A stretch of DNA of 64,000 nt from Candidatus Babelota bacterium (GTDB lineage Bacteria > Babelota > Babeliae > Babelales > Vermiphilaceae). Both the position numbers and the translations under genes were made by a program. How positions within the stretch are numbered: the first letter of the stretch is position 1; the number at the start of each line of letters is the position of its first letter. Below the pieces are notes generated by a model. It was not told the origin of the DNA. It worked only from the letters and a program-made list of their open reading frames with translations, and did no database searches. The stretch covers positions 22,123-86,122 of the forward strand of contig JAJCZB010000041.1 of NCBI GenBank assembly GCA_029262595.1, read 5' to 3'. Below, piece after piece: positions 4,188 through 24,088 of this stretch.

Positions 4188-5228
4188 ATGCGTATACCCT
4201 TTTATAGTCTCATTATTAGCTTGCTTGTAAATTGTTGCGCGGCTGCTCAGTCTGAAAAATCCCTTGAACATCCCGCATTACAAAACATCAAACAAATTAC
4301 TTTTCCATCTATGGGCTTTGAAAAAGCGGGAGAATCCTATTTTTCCCCTGATGGTAAAACATTAATTTTTCAGGCGGTTCCCTCCGGAAAAAAAGGGTAT
4401 CAAATTTATAGTATTGCTATTGAAGAAGGGCAACCTCGTCTAGTAAGCACCGGCCGTGGCACGTGCACCTGCGCTTTCTTTAGACCAGATGGGAAAAAAA
4501 TTATATTTGCATCAAGCCATGATGCCCCCGATAGCGCTGAAAATAATAATCCGCAAGGATATCAGCGAGAAAATAACAACTATGTATGGGAATTTACTCC
4601 CTACATGAATATTTATGAAGCAAATCCGGATGGTTCGGATTTGAAAGCACTTACGCATGGCCCAGCGTATAAAGCCGAATGCGCTTACAGCTCAGATGGG
4701 TCTCACATTGTATACGCAAGTAATGCTACCGGCAGCATGCAACTCTATACCATGCGCGCCGATGGTTCTGATATTCAACAAATTACTCACACTGATAAGG
4801 GATACAACGGCGGCCCCTTCTTTTGCCCAAACAATAGAAAAATTATTTATCGCGCTGATTATGAAAAACAACATTATTTACAAATTTATTGTATCGATCT
4901 GCGTACAGGCCATCACCAACAAATAACTACAAATACTGCAGTCAATTGGGCTCCGTTTTGGCACCCAAGCGGAGAAGTTGTCGTTTTTACCACATCATTA
5001 CACGGCCATACCCAATATGAATTATATTTAGTACATACCAAAACAAAGAATCTTTCTCGCCTCACGAACAATTCAGGATTTGATGGGCTGGCCAGCTTTA
5101 ATAAAGACGGCACACAAATAACCTGGACCTCTAAAAGAGGGCCCGATAAAACATGCCAAATTTTTGTAGCTGATTTTGTTATGCCAGAAGCGGTATATGC
5201 ATCTAAAAAAAATAAGGACGACGTATGA
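4188..5228 (+). CDS. Periplasmic TolB-like (PD40/WD40-like) beta-propeller protein
   Basis: Signal peptide, then repeated SPDGK.LIF / RPDGKKIIFAS / SSDGSHIVYAS / NKDGTQITWTS blade motifs. Confidence 0.6.
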   Translation: MRIPFYSLIISLLVNCCAAAQSEKSLEHPALQNIKQITFPSMGFEKAGESYFSPDGKTLIFQAVPSGKKGYQIYSIAIEEGQPRLVSTGRGTCTCAFFRPDGKKIIFASSHDAPDSAENNNPQGYQRENNNYVWEFTPYMNIYEANPDGSDLKALTHGPAYKAECAYSSDGSHIVYASNATGSMQLYTMRADGSDIQQITHTDKGYNGGPFFCPNNRKIIYRADYEKQHYLQIYCIDLRTGHHQQITTNTAVNWAPFWHPSGEVVVFTTSLHGHTQYELYLVHTKTKNLSRLTNNSGFDGLASFNKDGTQITWTSKRGPDKTCQIFVADFVMPEAVYASKKNKDDV

Positions 5229-6631
5229 AAAAAATAATTTTAATTGTTTTTCTTATTTCACATACAGCATATGCAAGCAACAATCAGACGGATGACGTAT
5301 CTCCCGTTTTAGTTAATTCATCCCTTCCCTTTAAAATATCCATCGAAACTGCAGGTTTTACATTACCGGGAGGAATACACTCAGCAGCATGCGCGCAAGA
5401 TGGATCACAGTATCTCTTTATAACGGGTAGAACCAATGGATTGCATGGCTTTGATGATGGCAATAATGACTTTCCCCCATCGCTGCAAAATACAAACGTT
5501 TTTGTTGTAGATGTATGCAAGCAAACAGTAAAATTTCGTTCTTTACACGATTCTTCATCTGGGTTAACTCAAGCGCAAATTGATACTCTTTCAGTAACCA
5601 GTCCCCAATCATATCAATCTGGTAACACATTATATATTACTGGCGGCTACGGGGTTGAGTCAGATACAGGTAATTTTTCGACTAAAGATACGCTCACTGC
5701 AATTGATGTTCCCGGGCTCATTCGCTGGGTAACTAAGCCGTCCTGCGCCGCGCCCGCATGTAAATATATTCGTCAAATTTCTAATCCTGTCTTTCAAGTA
5801 ACGGGTGGGGCAATGTATCAAGTGGATCAATGCCCAACACTCCTTATATTTGGCCAAAACTTTATAGGTTTTTATACCACTTCATCAAACGGGCTTTACA
5901 CAAAACAGGTACGAAAATTCAATATTATTGATGATGGAAAATGTCTGGATGTTGCAGTTAAAGAATCCACTCTCCCTGATCCAAGTTTTCGCCGTAGAGA
6001 CCTCAACGTTATTCCAATTATAGAAACTAATTGCGGTAAAAAAACTCCTGCATTTGTAGCTCTTTCAGGGGTATTTACTCTCGATACAGGCGTTTGGACT
6101 GTTCCCGTTGAAATTACTGCAAGCGGAAATCCATCTATGGCTAACCCCGATCTTGATACCACATTCAAACAAGGTATGAATAATTATGCGTCTGCGCATA
6201 TTGAGTTACTGGCTAAAAATGGTGATATGTTTTCCATATTATTGGGCGGCCTTACGTTTGGATTTTTCGAAAATGGAACATTTAAAACCGATCCAGACAT
6301 TCCATTCACTAATCAAATAACCGCAATACAGCGCAGTAAAAAAGGGGAGTACAAACAACATCTACTGCCCGTTGAATACCCTACGATTCTATCCACCCAA
6401 TCAAATCCAGGAAACACGCTCCTCTTTGGAGCTGGAGCTAAATTTATAATCGCACCTAACGTGCCTATTTTTTCTAATGGCGTTTTGAATTTGGAAAAAA
6501 TTAAAAAACCAACCACCATCGGCTATATAGTAGGCGGCATTCAAAGCACACTTGCTAATACAAATGGACCTTCTGATTCAGCAGCATCACCTTATATTTT
6601 CAAGGTGTGCCTTACTCCTACGTGTTATTAA
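5225..6631 (+). CDS. Secreted hypothetical protein (possible propeller-like fold)
   Basis: 468-aa ORF with signal peptide MKKIILIVFLISHTAYA. ATGA overlap with the upstream TolB-like gene suggests translational coupling. I recognise no diagnostic motif. Confidence 0.45.
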   Translation: MKKIILIVFLISHTAYASNNQTDDVSPVLVNSSLPFKISIETAGFTLPGGIHSAACAQDGSQYLFITGRTNGLHGFDDGNNDFPPSLQNTNVFVVDVCKQTVKFRSLHDSSSGLTQAQIDTLSVTSPQSYQSGNTLYITGGYGVESDTGNFSTKDTLTAIDVPGLIRWVTKPSCAAPACKYIRQISNPVFQVTGGAMYQVDQCPTLLIFGQNFIGFYTTSSNGLYTKQVRKFNIIDDGKCLDVAVKESTLPDPSFRRRDLNVIPIIETNCGKKTPAFVALSGVFTLDTGVWTVPVEITASGNPSMANPDLDTTFKQGMNNYASAHIELLAKNGDMFSILLGGLTFGFFENGTFKTDPDIPFTNQITAIQRSKKGEYKQHLLPVEYPTILSTQSNPGNTLLFGAGAKFIIAPNVPIFSNGVLNLEKIKKPTTIGYIVGGIQSTLANTNGPSDSAASPYIFKVCLTPTCY

Positions 6632-7218
6632 AAGCGATAGCCAAGCGCTGCTCCAAAAATAAACGCGCTCGTATTAGATTTGCAATCCGTTACTGTATGC
6701 CCATAGAGATTACCGCTGCGTATATAGCTATAATCAATAAAGACATCAAGTAAGAAATTGTGAAAAATATTTATGTAAGCGCCCAGTTTTGCAATGCCCC
6801 CATACCCCCATTGATGGGTTTTTGATACAACACATCCCCGACGGTTTTTTGTTCGTATATAAACAGGCTGAAACCCTGCGCCCACATAAAAATTGGTACG
6901 ATCACCAGCTGGTATAAAATATTTTATGCCCGCAGCAAGAGGAAGTAATTTAAGCTTTGTAGAATCACAGCGCCTTAAATGGCGCCCCCTTTTTTGAAAA
7001 TAATCGAGACTAAAAAAGGCATACCAATTTTTATCATTTTTCAATTGCACGCTCAGCTCAGGGCCATACAATGCGCTCCCCTTATAGCACTCTTTAAATA
7101 TTGAATCGACGGGCAGCAAATAAGCCCCTTTGAATTCTAAAATAATATCTCTACTAAAAAGGGAACCCACATTTAAAAACAAGATAATGAAAATATATAG
7201 ACTCTTTGATCGCATCAT
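6628..7218 (-). CDS. Small outer-membrane beta-barrel protein, distant paralog of 2256-2837
   Basis: Signal peptide, beta-strand periodicity, C-terminal LGYRF. ATG at 7218 is preceded by AAGGAG; the longest ORF starts at a TTG at 7239. Confidence 0.5.
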   Translation of the reverse strand: MMRSKSLYIFIILFLNVGSLFSRDIILEFKGAYLLPVDSIFKECYKGSALYGPELSVQLKNDKNWYAFFSLDYFQKRGRHLRRCDSTKLKLLPLAAGIKYFIPAGDRTNFYVGAGFQPVYIRTKNRRGCVVSKTHQWGYGGIAKLGAYINIFHNFLLDVFIDYSYIRSGNLYGHTVTDCKSNTSAFIFGAALGYRF

Positions 7219-7332
7219 AGCACCATTTCTCCTTTGCAACGTAGCTCTGAAATTATTTACAGTGTGATGGTATCAATTAAAGATCAACACTACGATCACA
7301 TCGTACACATATCACCAAAAAAAGAGCTCGTG

Positions 7333-7698
7333 CTACTTTTTTCCTTTTACATGTTTCTGAGACGTAGGAGGATTTTTTTTGGAACCTCCCGGGCCAGCCC
7401 ACAACACCTTATCCGACCAATAAGCAGCGCTCAATTTTCCTTTTGCGATATTTCGTGCATGACGCGCTTTAAATGATTTGCGTGCTTCCGGGCTATAGTT
7501 GTGCCCCATGCTGCTGTCTCCAAAATGGATAAGCTTTATCACATCTCCATCCTTAGCAAGCACCATCCCTTTTTTGCTTTCTCGCGTACTTTTACGTGGC
7601 TTATTAAAGCCATCAAAAATAATTCCGCGATATTTTATTTTGCCGCTGGGTAATTTTTCAAGCCCTGGCGGGTATTTTTTCTTACGTGAAACTCTCAT
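7333..7698 (-). CDS. Small, highly basic conserved hypothetical protein
   Basis: 121 aa. The core KKGMVLAKDGDVIKLIHFGDSSMGHNYSPEARKSFKARHARNI...AAYWSDKVLW looks like a conserved small-protein family whose name I cannot give with certainty. Confidence 0.5.
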   Translation of the reverse strand: MRVSRKKKYPPGLEKLPSGKIKYRGIIFDGFNKPRKSTRESKKGMVLAKDGDVIKLIHFGDSSMGHNYSPEARKSFKARHARNIAKGKLSAAYWSDKVLWAGPGGSKKNPPTSQKHVKGKK

Positions 7699-7851
7699 TA
7701 TCTCGGCCCTTCGTTAAAATCGATACTATATCTTCTTTCTATGACTATATAGCAACCCAAAGGCCTCCTTCAATAAAAAACGTCCAATTTTACCCTGTTT
7801 TATTGCTTTTATCGGCTCATATTCAGTATTCTAGTAAAAAAGGAGTAGAAG

Positions 7852-8034
7852 ATGGCCACTAAGAAAACGTCTCGTGTAAATGAAGCGGGCAATTATACCA
7901 AGCCCGCACTCCGCAAAAAACTTTTCGAACAGATTTTAGCCGGCTCAAAGGGAGGAAAGCCGGGCCAATGGTCTGCGCGAAAAGCTCAATTTCTGGCGCG
8001 AGAATATAAAAAAGCAGGAGGAGGATATACATAA
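7852..8034 (+). CDS. N-terminal half of a small basic conserved protein (split gene, see findings)
   Basis: 60 aa with GNYTKPALRKKLFEQILAGSKGGKPGQWSARKAQFLAREYKKAGGGY. AGGAG lies upstream of the ATG. Its stop overlaps the next ATG (TAATG). Confidence 0.5.
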   Translation: MATKKTSRVNEAGNYTKPALRKKLFEQILAGSKGGKPGQWSARKAQFLAREYKKAGGGYT

Positions 8035-8276
8035 TGGGAAGAAAAAAAACGCAACAATCGCTCGTTACATGGATGAAGCAAAAATGGCAAACCAAATCAG
8101 GCGAAAAAAGCTCTGAGACCGGTGAACGCTATTTACCTGAAAAAGCAATTAAAGCGTTATCACCTCAAGAGTATGCAGCAACGACACGCAAAAAACGCAA
8201 AGATAGCGCTGAAGGGAAACAATTCAGCAAGCAGCCTAAAAAAATTGCAAAAAAAACGCGTAAATATCGTAAGTAG
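8034..8276 (+). CDS. C-terminal half of the same small basic protein family
   Basis: 80 aa with QQSLVTWMKQKWQTKSGEKSSETGERYLPEKAIKALSPQEYAATTRKKRKDSAEGKQFSKQP. It lies in a different reading frame from 7852-8034. Confidence 0.5.
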   Translation: MGRKKTQQSLVTWMKQKWQTKSGEKSSETGERYLPEKAIKALSPQEYAATTRKKRKDSAEGKQFSKQPKKIAKKTRKYRK

Positions 8277-8282
8277 TAGCGA

Positions 8283-8777
8283 TTACAGAATATCAAAGCG
8301 CTGTATAAAACCGTGCCAAGTTGCGTGATCAGTAATCTCAGTGAAATTTTTGTGATCAATGCTCTTAATTGCTGAGATCCAAAAATTGCGAACTGTTTTA
8401 CCCAACTCCGGAAGTTGCCGAACTTCCCACCGTCCCGGATACAATTTAAAAATATAATGCGCAAACCATGTGCCATATCCTGAATGCCTGTAGATTGGCG
8501 TTATATAAAATTCTGCAATATCATGCGTAGAGGTATCTCCATCGATCATGCTTTGACAATTTACTACGCAAAACCCTGCCGGAATGTCACCGTTATATAA
8601 AAGATAGATGTCATACTTGTGCGCCCATTCAGCTTCAAGCTCTTTTTGATCGTATGTGCCATCAGGCTCCATCTGCATCTTAGTAATCGGTGCAAATTCG
8701 CACTCATAACAGAGTTGTAAATGTTTAAACACCTGGTTGTGTATATCCGTTTTTACCACAGATAGATTTTTATCCAT
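8283..8777 (-). CDS. GNAT-family N-acetyltransferase
   Basis: FYITPIYRHSGYGTWFAHYIF...GRWEV......N..FW matches the acetyl-CoA-binding core (R/Q-x-x-G-x-G/A) of a small GNAT subfamily. I prefer the ATG at 8777 (GGAGA upstream); the longest ORF extends to 8849 and would add a hydrophobic N-terminus. Confidence 0.65.
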   Translation of the reverse strand: MDKNLSVVKTDIHNQVFKHLQLCYECEFAPITKMQMEPDGTYDQKELEAEWAHKYDIYLLYNGDIPAGFCVVNCQSMIDGDTSTHDIAEFYITPIYRHSGYGTWFAHYIFKLYPGRWEVRQLPELGKTVRNFWISAIKSIDHKNFTEITDHATWHGFIQRFDIL

Positions 8778-9080
8778 GCCTGCATCTCCCCACAATAAAC
8801 CACCTGATATTAATAACATAATAACAATACAGAGATTATACTTATTCATACTTATAACTTCCTACAAAAAATTATCCTAAGCGAGCAGCGTTTCGTAAAT
8901 AGCGAGAACGACTAATGCCACTTGGATGCCCCTATAAAAGAAGAGTCGGTATATATGCTGCTAATCCACCAATGCTGTTTCTATACTCCTGAGCTTTAAA
9001 CAATATATTACTAAAGTAATAGATATATGTAATGCCCCAAAAATCGTAAGCCTTGGCGAAGGATGGATTATTTAGAACTT

Positions 9081-9743
9081 TTATTTTCGATTGAAACGAT
9101 AAATCGTCGCTCCAATAAGCGGCAATGCGATTATACCCCCAAAGATACTCACATACAGTATAAAATCATTAAGGGAATTTAAATTATGCAAATAAGCGCC
9201 TGCTATTACATAAATAACGGTGAGGGGTACTGCTCCAATAACATTTACTCCTATTACATTATATAGCGACATAGATGAAAGGCTCATTGCAATATTGGGC
9301 AAAAAACTTGGCATAAATGGAATGCTATGAATCATCAAAACATAATATAAGCCATATTTTTCTATTTCTTTATTAAATGGATCAAGTTCATCACCATATC
9401 GCTCTTGCACCCAATCATGCATTACATAACGAACAAAAGAACCCAAAATCGTAACTCCAATCAATACTCCCAACATCGAGTAGGCTATGCCATGAATAAT
9501 TCCAAAAAAATATCCTCCTATAATGGTTATACTAATTGGAATTCCAAAGATAATGGACAACACATACATACTCATATACACAACAGAAGCAAAGAGAGGA
9601 TAATGATTTGAAAAAAATAATAATTGATCTTTTATCTTTATAAAATCAGAGAGCGTTATTGGATTAATCCAATACGTAATCTGTATTAATACCAACAATA
9701 TAACAAATAAAATTGCTACAATGTTTTGCCAAACAAACTTCAT
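9081..9743 (-). CDS. TVP38/TMEM64 (DedA-related) family inner-membrane protein
   Basis: Multi-pass membrane protein with LFASVVYMSMYVLSIIFGIP and GSFVRYVMHDWVQERYG, as seen in SNARE-associated/TVP38 proteins. The ATG at 9743 is preceded by GGAG. Confidence 0.6.
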   Translation of the reverse strand: MKFVWQNIVAILFVILLVLIQITYWINPITLSDFIKIKDQLLFFSNHYPLFASVVYMSMYVLSIIFGIPISITIIGGYFFGIIHGIAYSMLGVLIGVTILGSFVRYVMHDWVQERYGDELDPFNKEIEKYGLYYVLMIHSIPFMPSFLPNIAMSLSSMSLYNVIGVNVIGAVPLTVIYVIAGAYLHNLNSLNDFILYVSIFGGIIALPLIGATIYRFNRK

Positions 9744-9905
9744 ATCCAATCTCCTAATAATGAAATTGCCATCATAGCACGATAGAAAAAAAGTTCGCAA
9801 AAATTTGTATCTTTACAATACCTATAGAGTTGAGTGGCGCCCTCCAGACGCCATGTCCGCCGGAGATTAACACAAGAAGATTGTTATAGCGAAATTTCAG
9901 CATAA

Positions 9906-10170
9906 TCACTTTTTGACAAAGTCACGGCCAGCACCCGATTTTAAATATCTCTCAAATCGTAATGCTTCTGATTGAGTTTGAAAGCCAAGAAACATTTTCA
10001 ATTTCGTCAGACAACCTTCGTTTGCAAAATGTCAAAATCAGCCTTACTAGTTTCATCACTTGTTGGCGTCAGCCAGGCGTAGCCCAACGGGCGAAAACTG
10101 GCATCCCAAAACCGACGATGGTAGAACTTTTGAGTCCTAAGACATCTTCTTTCATCCACTCATAATCTTG
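9906..10170 (-). pseudogene. Decayed GIY-YIG nuclease gene (small COG2827-like type), frameshifted and truncated
   Basis: The minus strand at 9906-10031 reads HFANEGCLTKLKMFLGFQTQSEALRFERYLKSGAGRDFVKK*. This matches the C-terminal ...HN.G...T...LVMFLGF.....A..FEKYLKSGSGR.F.K signature of small GIY-YIG proteins, with an internal deletion. Upstream pieces lie in other frames and no intact start exists. Confidence 0.4.
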
Positions 10171-10237
10171 ATTATTCACATACCTATGTGATTTAGTAAT
10201 CCATGAAAATCAAACTCTTTTTAATGAACGGAAACAT

Positions 10238-10984
10238 ATGAAGCAAAACAGAATATTTTACCTTTACTTACTATTTGCCTTGAGCTTAGGCCTTACAAGC
10301 TGTTTGCCAGAAAATAGCACTTCTCAAAAGCAGCCAAATGAACAAAGTCACACTAGTCCCGAAAAACAGCAGCGCTGGCAAGCCATGGAAAAAAAAGTTG
10401 AATCATGGGGCGATGGATTAGGACTCGGCATTGATCCGGGTATAAAAAAAATGGTTACTGTTCTTAATCTACTTGGCTTTAAAACAAGACAATCATGCGA
10501 AGGACACATTGATTGGGGTTTGCCATATCCTTGGATAGACTTTGAAACCGAAAATAAGCAAATAAAGGACCTAAGCATCAAACTTCAAAGTGTTAGTACC
10601 CTAATCCAGAAAGAAGAATCTGACATCCAAAAAAAATATCCGGATTTATCATTAGGTGAAGCACTTAGAAAAGAAGAGTCACAAGATTTAAATAGTTTGT
10701 ATCAAAAAATGCGTGCTATTAATGAAAATATAGAGAAAACATCTAAATCACAACTTATGCCATTAAACAATTTAATTGAAAATTTTTATAAAAATCGGCC
10801 AACTAATACAGATCGAATAATAGCGGTCCATGAAATCAATCCCACCTTTCTCAGAATGTATAGTTTAGGGGGAGACTGGCAAATCGTTAGAGATGATAAA
10901 GAAAAAAGATCAAAGCTCAATGAATATCAGCAGGAAATGAAAGAGTTCACAGAATTTTTAACAAATTTTTATTTTAGTAAATAA
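10238..10984 (+). CDS. Lipoprotein, hypothetical
   Basis: Lipobox LGLTSC after a signal peptide. The mature part is charged and helical. No recognisable domain. Confidence 0.5.
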   Translation: MKQNRIFYLYLLFALSLGLTSCLPENSTSQKQPNEQSHTSPEKQQRWQAMEKKVESWGDGLGLGIDPGIKKMVTVLNLLGFKTRQSCEGHIDWGLPYPWIDFETENKQIKDLSIKLQSVSTLIQKEESDIQKKYPDLSLGEALRKEESQDLNSLYQKMRAINENIEKTSKSQLMPLNNLIENFYKNRPTNTDRIIAVHEINPTFLRMYSLGGDWQIVRDDKEKRSKLNEYQQEMKEFTEFLTNFYFSK

Positions 10985-11068
10985 TACTTTGACTGCTCTA
11001 GAAGCTAAAATTAGTGGCGTCCCACAGTCGACTATTTTAGAACTTTTTGAAGCAATTTTACCTATTGA

Positions 11069-12304
11069 TTATACCACTGATTTTTTGTTTATAACCCTTA
11101 ACCAATCATTTCTTCGATAAGCGTATATGTCTCTAGAAAACTCTACAATTCCCAGCTTCTCTAGATAAATAAAATATGCGCGCAAAGTTTTCCATGTCGA
11201 TGGGAGATTATTGTAAATATTATCAGGGACAAGATGTGGGTTGCGTCTGCCATATATACCCACAATTTTGACGCTCTGATGAACCTTAAAGCCAAGTACA
11301 TCTTGAAGCCAGCCATCAACATGCTTAATAAGAAACGGCTTATCTTTACGCTTAAGAACAAAATAATTATAACAAGCTGTTTGCCAAATACGCCTATCGC
11401 ATCCAAAAATCCAGTCTCCATCAGGAACATCTACATTGACAAAATTCGGTAAATTATTGAATGAAAACGATAGATATCGAGCATTATCTCTCCAAAATGG
11501 ATGTGCTTCTGCTTGTTGCTTAAATTGGGCTATAGATTCATCGCTAGACAGAATCTTTAATTCCTTGAGAGATGGCAAAAGCTGTTCTTTTCCTCTTTGC
11601 TCTATTTTTTTTCTTTTGATTTCTTCTTGCCGATACTTCTTTTCTTGTTCAAAAATCTTATTTTCTAATTCTTTTTCTAATTCAAGACCATATCTCTGGG
11701 CCTTGGTGTTATGTAGCCATCGAATGCGATTGACATCATTGATATACAACCAGAAAGTCTCCCAACTTTTGATATCTTCCGGTGTTAAATCTGATAGATC
11801 GATTTCTATGGCGGATATGTTAGCTTCGAATATTTTTAAACGCTTTTGATCTTCCACTTTATGACGGTAAAAAATTTCAATTATGAGTGGCGTACTACCT
11901 TTTTGAGCAAGTATGTCAGCTTTCATGCCATGCAGTACCATTTCTTCCTGCACAGAATCAAAATTTATAATTTCCCCATCTTTTACAACTGATTTTGGCT
12001 CAACAGAATGCCATTCTCCTCTTGAATCTTTTTTTCCTGATCTATCAATATTATACCCTGGAAGAGTTATTCGCTTTCTTTCTCTTATAATTTGTTTAGC
12101 TGCGAAATGGATGGCGCTTTCACCTTTGCATTGATTATCAATAGCATGTTTGAAGTGAGGTTGATTTTTGCTCCCCTTGTGTGCAATAAGTGAAAATCCG
12201 CAATCTGGACAGACACAATTGCAATTCCTTCCTCTTTCTACATCAGTAATATGTACAAGAATTTTGTTTTCATTAAAACCGAAAGGCAGTTTGATTGATC
12301 TCAT
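11069..12304 (-). CDS. CoiA-like protein: N-terminal Zn finger plus PD-(D/E)xK-type nuclease core, with a long unique C-terminal half
   Basis: CNCVCPDCGFSLIAHKGSKNQPHFKHAIDNQCKGESAIHFAAKQ matches the CoiA N-terminal pattern (CP.CG..L....G....HF.H......C..ES..H...K). It is followed by MKADILAQKGSTPLIIEIFYRHK (D...E-x-x nuclease-like core), a coiled coil (aa ~200-260) and an uncharacterised C-terminus. Confidence 0.6.
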   Translation of the reverse strand: MRSIKLPFGFNENKILVHITDVERGRNCNCVCPDCGFSLIAHKGSKNQPHFKHAIDNQCKGESAIHFAAKQIIRERKRITLPGYNIDRSGKKDSRGEWHSVEPKSVVKDGEIINFDSVQEEMVLHGMKADILAQKGSTPLIIEIFYRHKVEDQKRLKIFEANISAIEIDLSDLTPEDIKSWETFWLYINDVNRIRWLHNTKAQRYGLELEKELENKIFEQEKKYRQEEIKRKKIEQRGKEQLLPSLKELKILSSDESIAQFKQQAEAHPFWRDNARYLSFSFNNLPNFVNVDVPDGDWIFGCDRRIWQTACYNYFVLKRKDKPFLIKHVDGWLQDVLGFKVHQSVKIVGIYGRRNPHLVPDNIYNNLPSTWKTLRAYFIYLEKLGIVEFSRDIYAYRRNDWLRVINKKSVV

Positions 12305-12445
12305 AGAGGACTGTCCTACGTGTCTCGCTAAGCTACCTTCGTTAAAACTTACATCGCCACTGAAACTATGACGTACAAGCCGGTGGGCAACCTACTAATT
12401 TTTCTATTAAGCAGAGAATTCCTAGCTGGCTATACAAAGATCACA

Positions 12446-13009
12446 TTATAATATCTGTACAAAATGAGACCTATAAGGCCTTTTGCCGGGAAATATAAGA
12501 TTATCTATATCATGTTTGGTTGGGCAGACAGGATATATAACAAGATATATGGCATTAAATATCTTAGGTTGTAAATTCAAAAAATTATCTTTTCTCAGAA
12601 TCGCATCAAAATCTTCTCTCCAATCTAATCCATATCCCTCGACACGAACCAATAGTATTCTGTTTTTATATAGACTGGGTAAATCTCGATAAGAAGGCTT
12701 ATTTTGCTTCTTATGAATTTCGTTTAAAATTCTATTTATAGCAACTGAAATCCTATCGTCATGAATCATCAATTTGAGAGTCTTTTCATTCGCGCTTTTT
12801 GATACAGTATCAACAACATCATACACTCGTACCGACACTTCTTCGATACATAGTCCTGCGTCAAAAACAACACAATCCGGCAAGTCAAAATCATCCGCAT
12901 TCTGAGCGAAGAAAGGCTTATCAGTTATCCCAGAATAGCTCAAAAAATGATCTATGATAAATCGCTCCTGAACCCTATCAAAATTAATTTTTTCAGAATT
13001 TTTCGTCAT
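12446..13009 (-). CDS. Hypothetical protein (island gene 3)
   Basis: 187-aa ORF on the same strand as its neighbours, with an ATG start. No motif recognised. Confidence 0.45.
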   Translation of the reverse strand: MTKNSEKINFDRVQERFIIDHFLSYSGITDKPFFAQNADDFDLPDCVVFDAGLCIEEVSVRVYDVVDTVSKSANEKTLKLMIHDDRISVAINRILNEIHKKQNKPSYRDLPSLYKNRILLVRVEGYGLDWREDFDAILRKDNFLNLQPKIFNAIYLVIYPVCPTKHDIDNLIFPGKRPYRSHFVQIL

Positions 13010-13214
13010 AGCCTAAAATCCTATTCAGAAGCTATAGCTAAAACTATCTATTGAAAAAGATGAAGTAAGTTGGCGTTACTTAGTGGACGGTCTGGGCAAT
13101 AGATCAATTGAATTTGATTTCTCATTAGAGACTATGCAACGGGCCTATCGCAATTTGGGACTTGAGTAATGTTTACTTAATTCCACATTTGCTGCGATCA
13201 CCATGCATGAGACT

Positions 13215-14009
13215 TTAAATATTAATCTTATTGTTTATATAATGCATCAAATTAGCGACCTGGTAAACCAGAAAAAATGCATCTTCCATAGTTATATCGC
13301 CATCTTTATGTTTTGAGTTTTCGTTAAAATAGGAATCAATATATTTAAAAGTCTGACAAATAATACTCCTAATATCACTGGCAACTTTATTAGTTTTGAG
13401 AAGTTTTCCAAGCTCAGCAATATTAACTGCCAACCCTTTCCCGTTTTTAAATTTAAAACGTAAAAACTCTTCTAATGACCGCCTTAAACTCTCTGCAACA
13501 GAGATATATTTCTTTTCCAATAAGTTCTTATAAACTTCTATGAAGTGCTTTTTACTTTTACTATCTAGAAATGAAAAAACCGGACCAACAAGTTCTTCAT
13601 CTAGTTTTTTATTGCCAGCAGGAACAATCAAAAAAACATCATCCATCATTGTACGATAAGGCAATTTGGATAACTTTAGAGCTTCTATTATTCCCATACA
13701 ATAGGCGTAGTATTTTTTTTCACCCCCGGACCAAGGCAAATTAAAAATTAATGCTACAAGTTTAATAAACTCAAGTTCATTACTTTCTTCTTTTAATCGA
13801 GGTAAAATATATTTTGCAATCGGGGATCGCCTGTCATACTGAATTCCATAAAACTGACAAAACTCAAAACGGCCTTCTAGAGTTATATTTAAATCTATAT
13901 CATCCGGAATAACATTTAATATTCTGTTTTTAAAGGCTTCAAACGTTGATTTTCGCTCTTTAAGGCCAAATTCACGATTAAATTTTTTATCAAATTCTGA
14001 TAAATTCAC
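13215..14009 (-). CDS. Hypothetical protein (island gene 2), translationally coupled to the helicase-methyltransferase gene
   Basis: 264-aa ORF. GTG start at 14009, preceded by AGGA, lies only 8 nt after the stop of 14018-17839. Helical and Lys/Glu-rich; no convincing catalytic motif (no clear R-x4-6-H HEPN motif). Confidence 0.5.
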   Translation of the reverse strand: MNLSEFDKKFNREFGLKERKSTFEAFKNRILNVIPDDIDLNITLEGRFEFCQFYGIQYDRRSPIAKYILPRLKEESNELEFIKLVALIFNLPWSGGEKKYYAYCMGIIEALKLSKLPYRTMMDDVFLIVPAGNKKLDEELVGPVFSFLDSKSKKHFIEVYKNLLEKKYISVAESLRRSLEEFLRFKFKNGKGLAVNIAELGKLLKTNKVASDIRSIICQTFKYIDSYFNENSKHKDGDITMEDAFFLVYQVANLMHYINNKINI

Positions 14010-17000: not shown

Positions 17001-17839
17001 GGACAGCCGTGACCTGAGGCCCTCTTCTGTATATTAGCTTGCCATTCATGATCGGAGCCTTTTGAGCATTTCCACCAAAATTTAGCTTTGCCCCCCCCAA
17101 AAACACCCTCAGGCAATAAGTTCCCATTTTTAATAGGATGCCACTCATTTGCTAAAAATGGATGCTTACTTGATAAAGAATTGGTTACACTTACTCTTTT
17201 TCCATCACAAAACGGACAGCCTGATCCTGCACGGCTACGCTCAACAGCCTTTTGTCTCCATTCATGATCTGGCCCCTTAGAACACTTCCACCAAATATAT
17301 TGATTACTTCCAGCTCTAACCTTGTCTGAAAACAGTCCTTTATTTTTTGTAGGATGCCATTCCTTTAAAAGGCCTAAATGAGTAACTGATAAGGGTGCTT
17401 TATGACATTTTGGGCAACCACGATAAGAGCCATCTTTTCTTATATGAGAAATAATAGAAGCTTTCCACTCATGATCAACATCACATCGCCACCAATAAAG
17501 TCTTTTACTTCTAGATCCAACCACATCCTTTGGAGTTAAAGGAAAATTTTTTTTGTAATGCCATCGCTTAGCTAAAATGGGATGAAGCGTCAACAAACTA
17601 TTGGTTTTAGATAATCGATAATTAATACAAAAAGGACATTTTGAATTAGCCTTTGCACGATAAGCAACAGTATTCTGCCACACATGATCATCAGATACAG
17701 GGCATAACCACCACACATTACGATTAGTGTTTGCGATTAATTTAGATGCGTATAGGTCACCATTCTTAACAGGGTGCCATTGTTTAGCAATATGAGGATG
17801 AGTTTCTATCAATGATTGTTTTTTCGATTGCTTCTTCAT
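14018..17839 (-). CDS. 1273-aa fusion: 6x treble-clef zinc-ribbon repeats + SF2 (DExH, SNF2/DEAD-like) helicase + C-terminal Rrp8-like SAM-dependent methyltransferase
   Basis: Six repeats of WHP.KN...(V)WW.C...H.W......R..G.GCP.C (aa 12-424). Helicase motifs are GTGAGKT (I), CPNNVI (Ia), VIDEIHQSK (II), MSATP (III), [14 protein letters not shown] (V) and [11 protein letters not shown] (VI). Methyltransferase blocks are [36 protein letters not shown] and [15 protein letters not shown]. Confidence 0.85.
   Translation of the reverse strand: [1273 protein letters not shown]
14075..14557 (-). other. Rrp8-like (Methyltransf_8-type) class I methyltransferase domain of the fusion protein (aa ~1095-1255)
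   Basis: Block-by-block resemblance to eukaryotic Rrp8/nucleomethylin as I remember it: YH..F......WP, DFGCG, CDM.QVPLE.ES, F.LSLMGTN, EA.R.LK..G.L..AE..SR, LGF. No (D/N/S)PP(Y/F/W) DNA amino-methyltransferase motif. Confidence 0.65.
14885..15967 (-). other. SF2 helicase core domain of the fusion protein (aa ~625-985)
   Basis: Walker A GTGAGKT at aa 648-654, DEIH at aa 744-747, SAT at aa 784-786, GRIYRQGQ at aa 970-977. Confidence 0.8.
16568..17806 (-). repeat. Six tandem, diverged ~68-72-codon zinc-ribbon repeat units inside the fusion gene
   Basis: The conserved Trp of the W(H)P.KN motif falls at aa 21, 93, 161, 233, 304 and 375. Each unit ends in a C-P-x-C knuckle, with the H.W element 16-20 residues (about 18) before it. 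Confidence 0.8.
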
Positions 17840-17925
17840 AATGTTTCAATATGCCTTATACTGGCGTTTTGAGCAAGTCAAAGAGCCTCATAAAAGGACT
17901 TTTGCTTCTTTGCAATCATTCCCCG

Positions 17926-17954
17926 TTGCCATATACACCCATCCCCCCTATACT
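17926..17954 (+). promoter_or_regulatory. Candidate sigma70-type promoter facing away from the island operon
   Basis: TTGCCA (17926-17931), a 17-nt spacer, then TATACT (17949-17954). It would drive rightward transcription into the structured non-coding region. Confidence 0.35.
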
Positions 17955-17960
17955 ATTCCT

Positions 17961-18554
17961 CATTCAAATAAAGCATTCCCATACGGCTTCGCATAACCTG
18001 TCCTTCGTAGTTTTAACGAAGTAGGAAGCTACGCCGTACACGCAAAGGAAGATCATGGCAGTATTCACAATCACATCCTTATATTGGCCTCTGGGCGCAC
18101 CCGTCTTCGCTCTAGCGAGCTTCTTCGGGCTACCGCAGCCAGCAATGCTTTTAGAGCAACGCTAAGATCAGCTGCCCAATTTCAATATCTAAATCCTTAC
18201 TTAATAAGTATCCTGAAAAATCCAATAACTTTCGCCGTAGCTTTCAAGCAAAGGCGAAATATGGAGAATGCTATGACCTTATTCATTCAATACTATCTCC
18301 CGGGTGCGCCCGAGAGATAATCTCTTAAAATCACTGTTCAATAATTTTCGTATTTTTATTATCTGAGATTTATATGGTTAAAAACCGCGTGGTGGTTTTG
18401 ACCCTCGATGATTACAGGAGAATGGCTTCTGCCTTTGCTGTTTTCGTGCGCGTTGATACACGAAGAAAAGCGGCAAAAAAATCAAACAGGAAATCAAAAC
18501 CTAATGACGATAAGAAGGCCCGTAGTCCATCTGGATTACGAGCCTTTCTTTTTT
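17961..18554 (+). ncRNA. Candidate large structured non-coding RNA, class unknown
   Basis: The region is locally GC-enriched. There is a nested hairpin at 17982-18038. A 15-bp long-range helix pairs 18089-18103 with 18301-18316. A 7-bp hairpin pairs 18230-18236 with 18253-18259. Another hairpin lies at 18381-18399. A strong terminator ends the region at 18515-18554. The ORFs here run through these structures. Confidence 0.35.
18515..18554 (+). terminator. Rho-independent terminator
   Basis: AAGGCCCGTAGTCC-ATCT-GGATTACGAGCCTT forms 13 pairs (including one G-T wobble) with one mismatch, followed by TCTTTTTT. Confidence 0.6.
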
Positions 18555-18615
18555 CCCACGTTCCTTTATCCTGTACTCATCAAAGAGGACCACCCTCTCT
18601 TAATTACTAACTTTT

Positions 18616-19100
18616 TTATGAAAGTAATTTCTGTATTATCTGCGTAATTTTTTCAATCGATAGCTCTATAGTTTTCAAATCATTAATGAGCAGTGCTTTC
18701 TTGTGTAGGTTTATTTGATCTTGCAATGTTTTTCTTTGCCAGAACCACAATTGCTTTGAATCTTTCACCATATCACTTGCTTGATCTATTAACTCTTCAA
18801 GCAGCCTCTTTTTATCAATAATTAACCGAGTGCTTTCATCCTCTTTTTCATGCTGCTTTGCATTTTCAACTATAGCATTAATGTTATCTGATGAGAGCGC
18901 ACTGCGATTGGTTATTATTATACCCTTCTTTTCTCCTGTGGATTCTTCTTGAGCAGTGACTTTCACAATACCATTCGCGTCTACCGCAAAAGTGATTTTA
19001 ATTTGAGGAACACCTTTAGGCATCGGTGGAATTCCTGAAAGCGAAAAATCTCCTAATAATAAATTGTCTTTTGCAAATTGTAGAATCTTCGGATGAAGTA
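18616..19100 (-). pseudogene. Truncated Hsp70/DnaK: only the distal substrate-binding domain and helical lid remain
   Basis: LLGDFSLSGIPPMPKGVPQIKITFAVDANGIVKVTAQEESTGEKKGIIITN.SALSSDNINAIVENAKQHEKED aligns to the DnaK region L.[44 protein letters not shown].DAE. No ATG, GTG or TTG start lies between it and tRNA-Glu. The track ORF only stays open because it reads through the tRNAs. Confidence 0.6.
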
Positions 19101-19103
19101 AGA

Positions 19104-19181
19104 TGGCGTCCCTAATGGGATTTGAACCCATGTTTTCGCCGTGAAAGGGCGATGTCCTAGACCAGGCTAGACGATAGGGAC
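19104..19181 (-). tRNA. tRNA-Glu (anticodon UUC), CCA encoded
   Basis: The reverse complement folds as GTCCCTA/TAGGGAC acceptor, anticodon arm TCGCC-CTTTCAC-GGCGA, T arm ATGGG-TTCAAAT-CCCAT, discriminator G, CCA. It closely resembles bacterial tRNA-Glu. Confidence 0.9.
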
Positions 19182-19286
19182 GCGGAATTTTCAATAGTAC
19201 GCCGTTGAAGGCGTTATATAAAAGACAAGTGTATGAATAATCATCATCTTTCTTAAAGGCTCTCTTTTGAGAGAACTTGAAAAAGA

Positions 19287-19362
19287 TGGTGAGCCGCGTT
19301 GGATTCGAACCAACGACCCACAGCTTAAAAGGCTGTTGCTCTACCAACTGAGCTAGCGGCTC
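19287..19362 (-). tRNA. tRNA-Lys (anticodon UUU), CCA encoded
   Basis: The reverse complement is GAGCCGC-TA-GCTC-AGTTGGTA-GAGC-A-ACAGC-CTTTTAA-GCTGT-GGGTC-GTTGG-TTCGAAT-CCAAC-GCGGCTC-A-CCA, a perfect 76-nt cloverleaf. Confidence 0.92.
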
Positions 19363-19469
19363 ACACACATTTTTATTTCAAAAGATAAGGAATAATACTC
19401 TAAAAGGTATATTCCAGTGGGCTATTTGTCAAGAAAAAAGAGGACTTTTTGCTGACTTTTAGCTCACTA

Positions 19470-20237
19470 TCACTGAGAAGTAATATAAAGAGGCACTCCT
19501 TGAGCACGCGCCACAGTGCTACACAGCTTAATATACTCTGATTTTGCCGCTATAATATCGGAAGTTTTGACCCAAATATTAATTGAAAAACCCAGAGTAT
19601 CTGCCGAGGATGCTGCATAAGAAACACTTATTTCTTTATCTTTAATAGCAAGATCCATTTGTTGCCACGCATCTTGAAAAACACGTATGGCCTTATCAGC
19701 ATCATCCTTTGTGGATACTGAAGCATGAAAAACAATCACCCGCTGCTTTAATGCCGTAATATTTACTACTTTATTTTTAATCAATAGTTCATTGGGAACC
19801 CGAATAAGCTTATTATCTATCGTTTTTAGCATCACTGAAAGCAATCCGATATCCTGTATTTTTCCTTGAGCATCGTCATATTTAATAACGTCACCCACTC
19901 GCAATGAATGTTCTATCATCAAAAAAATACCACTTATCACATTCGCAATAGTTGTCTGAGAAGCAAAACCAATGGCCACACCAAATACCCCGGCAGCACC
20001 TAATAACGTTGTAATATTAAAACCAGAGACATTTAAAATTATACCGACGGTAATAATAAACAACGTATATTTTAAAAAAAACGCTAAAACATCTTCTGTA
20101 GATTGTGGCAATCGATTGGATACAAATCCCACTATTTTTCCCGTAGCATATCCTACAATAAAATATGCCATAAAACAGGTTGCGGCTGCCCCAACAATGC
20201 GAATAATATCCATTACTTCAAATTCACCAATGAGCAT
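19470..20237 (-). CDS. Small-conductance mechanosensitive channel (MscS family)
   Basis: TM3/beta-domain signature LLGAAGVFGVAIGFASQTTIANVISGIFLMIEHSLRVGDVI....G.I.DIGLLSV.L.T.DN.L..VPN. The start is uncertain (ATG at 20237 or 20213; the longest ORF start at 20279 overlaps mgtE). Confidence 0.8.
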   Translation of the reverse strand: MLIGEFEVMDIIRIVGAAATCFMAYFIVGYATGKIVGFVSNRLPQSTEDVLAFFLKYTLFIITVGIILNVSGFNITTLLGAAGVFGVAIGFASQTTIANVISGIFLMIEHSLRVGDVIKYDDAQGKIQDIGLLSVMLKTIDNKLIRVPNELLIKNKVVNITALKQRVIVFHASVSTKDDADKAIRVFQDAWQQMDLAIKDKEISVSYAASSADTLGFSINIWVKTSDIIAAKSEYIKLCSTVARAQGVPLYITSQ

Positions 20238-23395: not shown

Positions 23396-24088
23396 TTATG
23401 CCTGTAAAGACTTACCATATCGATACGATCGATCTTTTAATCGTTGGAATTGTGCTGCAAATTTTTGAAATGTTTTGTGGTCTTTCACAACGATCGCATT
23501 TTCTTGATTTGATTTACTTGCCGCTTTTGTAAAATTATATGAGCCGGTCCAAAGAGTTGATTGAGAATTAAATAGCGCAAATTTATGATGCATCAAGCTT
23601 GATCCACTACTTGCTGCCGGTGGATTATATACAAAAATAGAACATCCTTTATCGCAGAGCATGTTCATTTTATTTGCCCGCTCTTTTAAACACCCCACAT
23701 CAGTCACCAGCGAAACAGCCACTCCTCGCTTTTGAGCACGAGCAAGAGCGCGTGCAATTTCAGGCTCGGTTAAAATAAAAATTGCTGCATGTATTGCTTC
23801 AGTTTCTTTATCTATTAATGAAATAAGCTCTTTTTTCACGTCATCATCGGGAGAAAAAAGAGAACGAATTGATAACTTTTTTTTGCTATCGCCTACTGGT
23901 GCAGGCGACTTTGTCTCTGGTAATTCAAAAAAATCGGACTGTCCCACAATAAAATGCGTCTTTCCAAATGTATCTGGCGCAGCGAAGGCTACCTGCAACG
24001 GCTCCTCTTGCAATGACTTTGAAAAAGAACAATATGAAGATTCAGCTGCCGCACTCCATGCGAGCAGAAAGACGATACTCCAAAACAT
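23396..24088 (-). CDS. Secreted phospholipase D-superfamily protein, Nuc-like single-HKD endonuclease type
   Basis: Signal peptide. Single HKD-like motif MHHKFALFNSQSTLWTGSYNFTKAASKSNQENAIVV. Confidence 0.7.
   Translation of the reverse strand: MFWSIVFLLAWSAAAESSYCSFSKSLQEEPLQVAFAAPDTFGKTHFIVGQSDFFELPETKSPAPVGDSKKKLSIRSLFSPDDDVKKELISLIDKETEAIHAAIFILTEPEIARALARAQKRGVAVSLVTDVGCLKERANKMNMLCDKGCSIFVYNPPAASSGSSLMHHKFALFNSQSTLWTGSYNFTKAASKSNQENAIVVKDHKTFQKFAAQFQRLKDRSYRYGKSLQA

Follow-up and report, generated by a model that had tools for sequence, protein, structure and literature searches.

What is encoded in a gap that carries its own promoter, its own terminator and a dense set of hairpins, but was read as holding no credible open reading frame (ORF)? 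We addressed this question for 776 nt of an island in the genome of a Candidatus Babelota bacterium (assembly GCA_029262595.1), lying between the start of a helicase-methyltransferase gene (17839, − strand) and a DnaK fragment (18625-19080, − strand). All positions are those of the window, the whole 64,000-nt stretch of contig JAJCZB010000041.1 that was analysed. An original prediction took the gap for a hairpin-dense non-coding locus reminiscent of large structured RNAs. Comparison with homologous copies identified it, on sequence evidence, as a self-contained rightward transcription unit encoding a small protein, here called ORF2, and not as a large non-coding RNA. We put the probability at roughly 0.7 that the locus is the orphaned promoter-proximal control and small-gene module of a family of elements that integrate at tRNA genes in the Dependentiae (TM6/Babeliales).

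The conserved unit and its small-protein gene

Homologous copies delimit a conserved unit at 17918-18560, read rightward, whose principal features are:

18374-18610, + strand: ORF2, a small basic protein; residues 1-61 are conserved (to ~18556) and the tail after the T-tract is not
18515-18554, + strand: predicted intrinsic terminator inside ORF2, a stem of 12-13 pairs (18515-18546) followed by TTTCTTTTTT
17926-17954, + strand: predicted promoter, −35 TTGCCA (17926-17931), a 17-nt spacer and −10 TATACT (17949-17954), agreeing with the consensus at 10 of 12 positions

The homologous units were located through the ORF2 protein and not by DNA search: the gap as a whole had no DNA match in 60, then 261 related genomes, and its DNA showed no similarity to phage and plasmid collections. 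A phmmer search with the frame 18374-18607 returned ten homologues (E = 2e-19 to 7e-6), one of them from a Candidatus Dependentiae bacterium and annotated as hypothetical, with conservation limited to residues 1-61. In total, about 12 close copies of the unit were recovered from Dependentiae (TM6) metagenomes and at least 29 distant copies across the order. DNA homology begins a few bases ahead of the −35 hexamer and extends as far as the T-tract at loci L162 (two copies, L162a and L162b), L163, L175, L176, L180, L184 and L172. A profile built on ORF2 found it in 23 of the 261 genomes of the order, at one to three copies each, and not in three genomes of the same genus; the source genome (1.45 Mb, 71 contigs) holds one copy of the unit. 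No relatives of ORF2 were found in IMG/VR viral contigs or Joint Genome Institute (JGI) metagenome contigs.

Among 12 copies, pairwise differences in ORF2 number 777, 795 and 1483 at codon positions 1, 2 and 3, and 735 codon differences are synonymous, in addition to switches between the two serine codon families. The twofold excess at third positions, together with the synonymous differences, identifies ORF2 as protein-coding. The gap, previously judged to contain no credible ORF, therefore holds a conserved protein-coding gene at 18374-18610, preceded by two short ORFs with strong Shine-Dalgarno (SD) sequences, and the non-coding reading gives way to an order-wide family of small proteins. 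The product is highly charged, and AlphaFold2 models it as one long helix (residues 11-41) with a disordered, very basic tail.

The terminator lies inside this gene. The hairpin and T-tract reported earlier at 18515-18554 are present as a GC-rich stem-loop with the T-tract directly after it on the transcribed strand, as in intrinsic terminators. The T-tract ends at 18554 and the ORF2 stop codon is at 18608-18610, placing the terminator 54 nt ahead of the stop codon, within the ORF, which is the non-stop design of the ArfA and BrfA type. The hairpin is kept in 12 of 12 close copies with compensatory changes (RNAfold), and the compensation is visible in the protein, where KAR...LRAF becomes KPR...LRGF jointly. 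A simple scan detected a terminator-like hairpin in 34 of 41 modules, and in 33 of those 34 the ORF2 frame stays open beyond it; the tails diverge after the T-tract, with the stop codon 2-50 codons further on. A transfer-messenger RNA (tmRNA) is present in the source genome.

At the other end of the unit, the TTGCCA-N17-TATACT element was likewise found at 17926-17954. A consensus scan yielded promoter-like sites in the region at chance level (6 found against 5.3 expected), so it is conservation across homologous copies that makes this site credible: the hexamers and much of the spacer (CACCCATCC) are shared by L162a, L162b, L163, L175, L176 and L184. On the minus strand the same scan found no promoter-like site between 17840 and 18615. 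The proposal of a rightward, self-contained transcription unit was thus borne out, with promoter and intrinsic terminator both kept in the homologous copies.

Gene X, the serine recombinase and the tRNA target

Nearly all ORF2 copies found with the profile lie 70-1000 nt upstream of a gene that we call X (~370 aa, starting MIDTIVLTL...), and ORF2-X gaps of ~70-150 nt contain the terminator. At loci chosen by X alone, an ORF2-like frame stands directly upstream in 11 of 12. X occurs in 57 of the 261 genomes at one to six copies, including pseudogene fragments with stop codons, and has about 1,300 homologues in a large protein collection, all of them hypothetical. Searches of X against Pfam, PHROGs, NCBIfam, PADLOC and PDB sequences gave nothing significant; the weak indications that exist suggest that X is probably a rolling-circle-type replication or transfer protein. 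Downstream of X, at a distance of 1.5-6 kb, nine of ten regions carry a large serine recombinase (Pfam Resolvase, Recombinase and Zn_ribbon_recom). In genomes G013, G084, G046 and G012, which represent four genera, the recombinase gene ends inside tRNA-Glu, beside tRNA-Lys, MgtE and a pseudouridine synthase (in G013, at locus L231, the gene at 10606-12117 overlaps tRNA-Glu at 12058-12135), and the neighbourhood of tRNA-Glu, tRNA-Lys, MgtE and pseudouridine synthase is identical in the window. Elsewhere, tRNA-Asp or tRNA-Arg serves as the target. A literature search on mobile elements of Dependentiae yielded nothing relevant.

In the window, a DnaK fragment lies in the place of X and the recombinase, with a remnant of the latter next to tRNA-Glu:

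18625-19080, − strand: C-terminal fragment of DnaK (Hsp70), covering Pfam HSP70 profile positions 441-593
19053-19103, + strand: recombinase remnant, the last ~17 codons, running into the antisense of tRNA-Glu (19104-19181, − strand)

Residues 475-502 of the G013 recombinase align by tblastn with 63% identity over 19053-19157. No plus-strand gene follows the ORF2 unit in the window, and X is absent from the whole assembly of its own genome. Since X and the recombinase are gone from the window, the unit here is an orphan: the module appears intact at 17918-18560, and X and nearly all of the recombinase appear to have been lost. An intact element, as reconstructed from its relatives, would consist of a promoter, a structured leader of ~400 nt with one or two mini-ORFs predicted to be translated, ORF2 with its internal terminator, X, zero to two cargo genes, and a recombinase gene overlapping the target tRNA. 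The nearness to tRNA genes remarked on in the original prediction is meaningful because the parent element integrates at such genes, which is a different reason from the one first given. A suggested link to the adjacent helicase-methyltransferase gene did not hold, as the two do not travel together: the gene divergent from the unit differs at every locus, and its partners are X and the serine recombinase.

Several further observations concern these genes and the island. ORF2 and X occupy one open frame of 457-486 aa at L187, L190, L191 and L195 (genomes G150, G164, G046 and G084), and a length of 450-490 aa is common among database entries for X; a selected fusion is probably not the explanation (~5 of 29 such frames are expected by chance), but the continuous frame distorts gene calls. 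The source genome also carries, at C47:22047-23531 (+ strand), a full-length large serine recombinase gene whose 3' end overlaps tRNA-Asp at 23508-23585 (− strand); this marks a further integrated element of the type, one that lacks gene X. Around the remnant in the window, the antisense of tRNA-Glu and 50 nt beyond it still encode the recombinase's last ~28 residues, and the DnaK fragment overlaps the remnant. A degraded dnaJ downstream of the DnaK fragment was considered and rejected, six-frame translations containing no DnaJ-like sequence. Three genomes of the same genus carry unrelated cargo at the same tRNA-Glu site. Upstream of the ORF2-X module of G013, L231:3128-6748 encodes a 1,207-aa helicase (ResIII and Helicase_C) with eight helicase-associated (HA) domains; the window helicase, which bears six DUF4379 zinc-ribbon repeats, belongs to the same kind of island, and helicases with such repeats seem to recur as cargo at this site. 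Elsewhere in the source genome, contig C71 holds ~30 tRNA genes and a second tmRNA gene (tag GNVHNMSDYTRPLALVA) at ~4400-13900, an array whose appearance suggests a large phage, a giant-virus-like element or else a contaminating contig.

Leader ORFs, inserted hairpins and RNA structure

Between promoter and ORF2, the leader contains two likely upstream ORFs (uORFs) and several hairpins:

18055-18165, + strand: uORF1, 36 codons, MAVFTITSLYWPLGA...MLLEQR and stop, with SD AAAGGAAG at 18044-18051
18273-18320, + strand: uORF3, MTLFIQYYLPGAPER and stop, with SD GGAGAA at 18263-18268; its 3' half is the hairpin 18294-18319
18230-18259, + strand: hairpin TTTCGCC/GGCGAAA with a family-like loop, where other copies have an anti-SD hairpin TTTTCCT..AGGGGAA
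17982-18038, + strand: outer inserted hairpin, TACGGC TTCGC..AGCTAC GCCGTA
17997-18026, + strand: element A, nested in the loop of the outer hairpin and present only in the window and L175
18100-18129, + strand: element B, CCCG TCTTC GCTC TAGC GAGC TTCTT CGGG, a 30-nt in-frame insertion in uORF1

The SD, ATG and first ~13 codons of uORF1 are kept in seven close copies and its C-terminus is not conserved; the N-terminus is aromatic/hydrophobic, with a hydrophobic run of only ~15 residues. At least 17 of the 29 distant copies have an SD-led uORF, placed 190-350 nt ahead of ORF2. For uORF3, the SD and ATG are kept in nine copies as GG(R)GAAYRCYATGA, and in most copies this SD is paired in a small anti-SD hairpin. 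Differences at codon positions 1, 2 and 3 amount to 49, 75 and 95 in uORF1 and to 51, 68 and 98 in uORF3, a moderate excess at third positions.

The local hairpins described earlier were recovered, comprising the nested hairpin (17982-18038, inner helix CTTCGT/ACGAAG), TTTCGCC/GGCGAAA at 18230-18259 and AAAACC/GGTTTT at 18381-18399. The long-range 15-bp helix fared less well: a perfect 11-nt inverted repeat exists (18093-18103/18301-18311), but the helix is not kept in L176, L180 and L184, and its 3' arm forms the local hairpin 18294-18319, which more distant copies (L180, L184) keep with a different sequence. Both arms are quasi-palindromes (GGGYGCRCCC) encoding Gly-Ala-Pro, one in uORF1 and the other in uORF3. 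The sequence CTGGGCGCACC at 18091-18101 is identical to the 3' end of tRNA-Arg genes in the source genome. We considered an attachment-site (att) scar of a tRNA-Arg 3' end at 18089-18103 with an inverted copy at 18301-18316 and dropped it because the sequence belongs to conserved uORF1 (codons L-G-A) and uORF3, and is also present in copies elsewhere. The suggestion of a miniature inverted-repeat transposable element (MITE) was rejected as well, the unit being single-copy in its genome, the repeat arms internal to uORF1 and uORF3 and not at element ends, and the homology running from promoter to terminator without being bounded by the repeat.

Elements A and B, each ~30 nt, are the only pieces of the gap that recur at the DNA level in the 60, then 261 related genomes. 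They belong to one hairpin family with a covarying stem of 4-7 bp and the conserved loop TTCG-YTAAAR-CTTC, to which the outer hairpin is likewise assigned. About 13 chromosomal tRNA genes of the source genome are directly followed by a family hairpin (e.g. C53:26689-26720, C26:699-742), the tRNA CCA forming the 5' strand of the stem, as in CCATAC TTCGCTAAAGCTTC GTATGG; element B itself stands immediately after the CCA in tRNA-Leu(caa) and in tRNA-Val(tac). Scanning for the exact pattern placed the element A motif in >120 contigs that span many phyla. Presence varies among copies of the unit: the outer hairpin is found in the window, L175 and L162a and is missing from L162b, L163, L176 and L180, and element B is found in the window, L162b and L163 and is missing from L162a, L175, L176 and L180. 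Family hairpins nest within one another's loops, and other copies of the unit have further insertions after uORF3. The insertion of element B leaves the frame of uORF1 open, as does a hairpin inserted in frame within gene X (L163:2638-2690), which adds ...PVLRSFNEVGGYAGQGK... to the protein. In being short GC-rich palindromes with intergenic scatter, presence/absence variation and nesting, these inserted hairpins (and they only) resemble MITEs and the repetitive extragenic palindromes and bacterial interspersed mosaic elements (REP/BIME) associated with RAYT (REP-associated tyrosine) transposases. They differ in a loop that is common to many phyla and in favouring the site right after the tRNA CCA, with the CCA within the stem.

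These insertions bear on the best surviving alternative, that the locus specifies a large structured non-coding or dual-function RNA, like RNAIII or SgrS, whose RNA activity is the main one and whose ORFs are secondary or incidental. Its folding is indeed far more stable than that of dinucleotide shuffles (601-nt stretch; + strand z = −6.0, − strand z = −4.8), the ~400-nt leader has conserved blocks and hairpins outside the ORFs, and the terminator stem shows compensatory changes. In its size (~600 nt), many hairpins and position on a mobile island close to tRNA genes, the locus also recalls ROOL, GOLLD, OLE, raiA, HEARO and 6S. Much of the structure, however, comes from hairpin insertions that other copies lack, and the long-range helix is not conserved. 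The 'GC-enriched' composition holds against the AT-rich island (42.3% versus 36.8%) and not against the genome (44.5%), and falls to 40.2% once the three inserted hairpins (51% GC) are removed; part of both the hairpin density and the GC excess is thus due to three small mobile hairpins inserted in the leader. In contrast to the named RNA classes, the locus holds a protein gene and has no covariance-model match: the comparison with Rfam that had been proposed for these and other families gave none, even at E ≤ 10, gathering-level matches in the whole window being three tRNAs only and those at E ≤ 10 on 17700-19500 being at chance level (best within the gap RAGATH-30, 25.7 bits against a gathering score of 59.5). 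With the third-position excess, synonymous differences and serine codon-family switches of ORF2 also against it, a primarily RNA-based function appears unlikely.

Proposed control, rival explanations and significance

How might an orphaned control module of a tRNA-integrating element have worked in its complete form? We infer by analogy a translation-coupled attenuation or non-stop mRNA mechanism. The ORF2 frame crosses its own terminator, so that a ribosome trailing the polymerase closely would prevent termination and transcription would continue into X. Transcripts that did terminate would lack a stop codon, and tmRNA would tag their ORF2 product for degradation, as happens with arfA and brfA. 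In trans, ORF2 might act as a small nucleic-acid-binding regulator of the Cop type or as a recombination directionality factor. A more specific version, which we offer tentatively and regard as doubtful, makes ORF2 a tmRNA-gated switch of a new kind, a directionality or copy-control factor produced on purpose from a self-terminated mRNA with no stop codon. The host tmRNA system would ordinarily remove this protein; it would accumulate when quality control is saturated or ribosomes follow closely, with read-through into X, and would so couple excision and replication of the integrated element to the translational state of the host.

Two known arrangements invite comparison. In the pyrBI leader attenuator of Escherichia coli, a leader ORF runs through an intrinsic terminator just upstream of the regulated gene, and a closely following ribosome prevents termination. 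Relatives of our unit resemble this in that ORF2 overlaps a terminator within the ~70-150-nt ORF2-X gap; they differ in the protein-level conservation of ORF2, which the pyrBI leader peptide lacks, and the window has no downstream gene. Rolling-circle plasmids carry cop-rep modules, such as copG-repB of pMV158, and leader attenuation of repC in pT181. Here, too, a replication-type gene is directly preceded by a small gene in the same orientation, behind one conserved promoter and with a terminator in the leader of the rep gene. Unlike in those modules, ORF2 is predicted to form a single helix and not a ribbon-helix-helix, no promoter for an antisense RNA was found, and the Rep nature of X is weakly indicated.

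Several points weigh against our preferred interpretation. ORF2 has no relatives in Pfam (E ≤ 10), PHROGs, NCBIfam, PADLOC or PDB sequences, and its structural model is of moderate confidence (predicted local distance difference test, pLDDT, of 70). For X, one of 35 members matched Pfam PF05144 (G2P N-terminal domain) at E = 0.004; its best fold matches were to unnamed viral models (E = 7e-8, template modelling score ~0.45-0.49), followed by a weak match to an Inoviridae Rep (E = 3e-3), and there was no fold match in PDB. That the promoter is used, that transcription terminates and that the three ORFs are translated are predictions from sequence, and the support for translation of uORF1 and uORF3 is only suggestive. 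Finally, the units of the close clade, the window's included, often have no X immediately behind them; for such copies a role in attenuation is excluded, and ORF2 may have a function of its own.

Another alternative makes ORF2 a back-up ribosome-rescue factor analogous to ArfA or BrfA. The brfA gene has a rho-independent terminator within its coding region and a product of ~62 residues, and the same design has been described for arfA (PMC6881298). ORF2 shares this rare design with brfA of Bacillus subtilis and arfA of E. coli in that a basic product of ~60 residues is encoded with the terminator in the coding region, ahead of a non-conserved tail and the stop codon, and the terminator lies within the ORF in 33 of 34 copies; tmRNA is present in the source genome. 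It differs in lacking similarity to ArfA (PF03889) or to any other Pfam, NCBIfam or PDB sequence entry, and in its long leader with uORFs. Its patchy distribution (the 23 of 261 genomes found with the first profile), occurrence in one to three copies, tight linkage to the mobile gene X and absence from the three genomes of the same genus are unlike a housekeeping back-up factor, making a rescue role very unlikely.

Still less probable is a type I toxin-antitoxin-like locus in which the uORF1 peptide or ORF2 is a toxin silenced by folding of its mRNA. A structured mRNA with SD-sequestering hairpins, the island location, the presence of several copies in some genomes and the aromatic/hydrophobic N-terminus of uORF1 would suit such a locus; the unit contains no antisense promoter-like site, the hydrophobic run of uORF1 is short and its C-terminus not conserved, and ORF2 is highly charged. 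Least credible of all is functionless junk at an island junction, made of chance hairpins and tRNA 3'-end scars: the island is mosaic and decayed and CTGGGCGCACC equals a tRNA-Arg 3' end, but that 11-mer belongs to conserved uORF1, and the reading is largely refuted by homologous copies that preserve the unit from end to end, its ORFs, promoter and terminator intact.

The reading of the locus as the orphaned module of a tRNA-integrating element corrects the annotation of this gap, once called 'non-coding', where there are a conserved gene for a small protein and, probably, two leader ORFs. It also brings to light a previously undescribed family of integrative elements, with a core of ORF2 followed by X and a large serine recombinase at tRNA genes, in the Dependentiae, bacteria that are uncultured or dependent on amoebae. 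Copies of the unit provide filled-versus-empty comparisons for the tRNA-trailer hairpins, including one insertion in frame within a coding sequence. The locus is a variant of known mobile-element control modules, and its notable family-wide feature is an intrinsic terminator within a conserved ORF. To our knowledge, the characterised cases of a terminator conserved inside an ORF have so far been arfA and brfA, both ribosome-rescue genes; the same design in a gene of a mobile element suggests that non-stop mRNA and tmRNA gating, or translation-coupled attenuation, may be in wider use.

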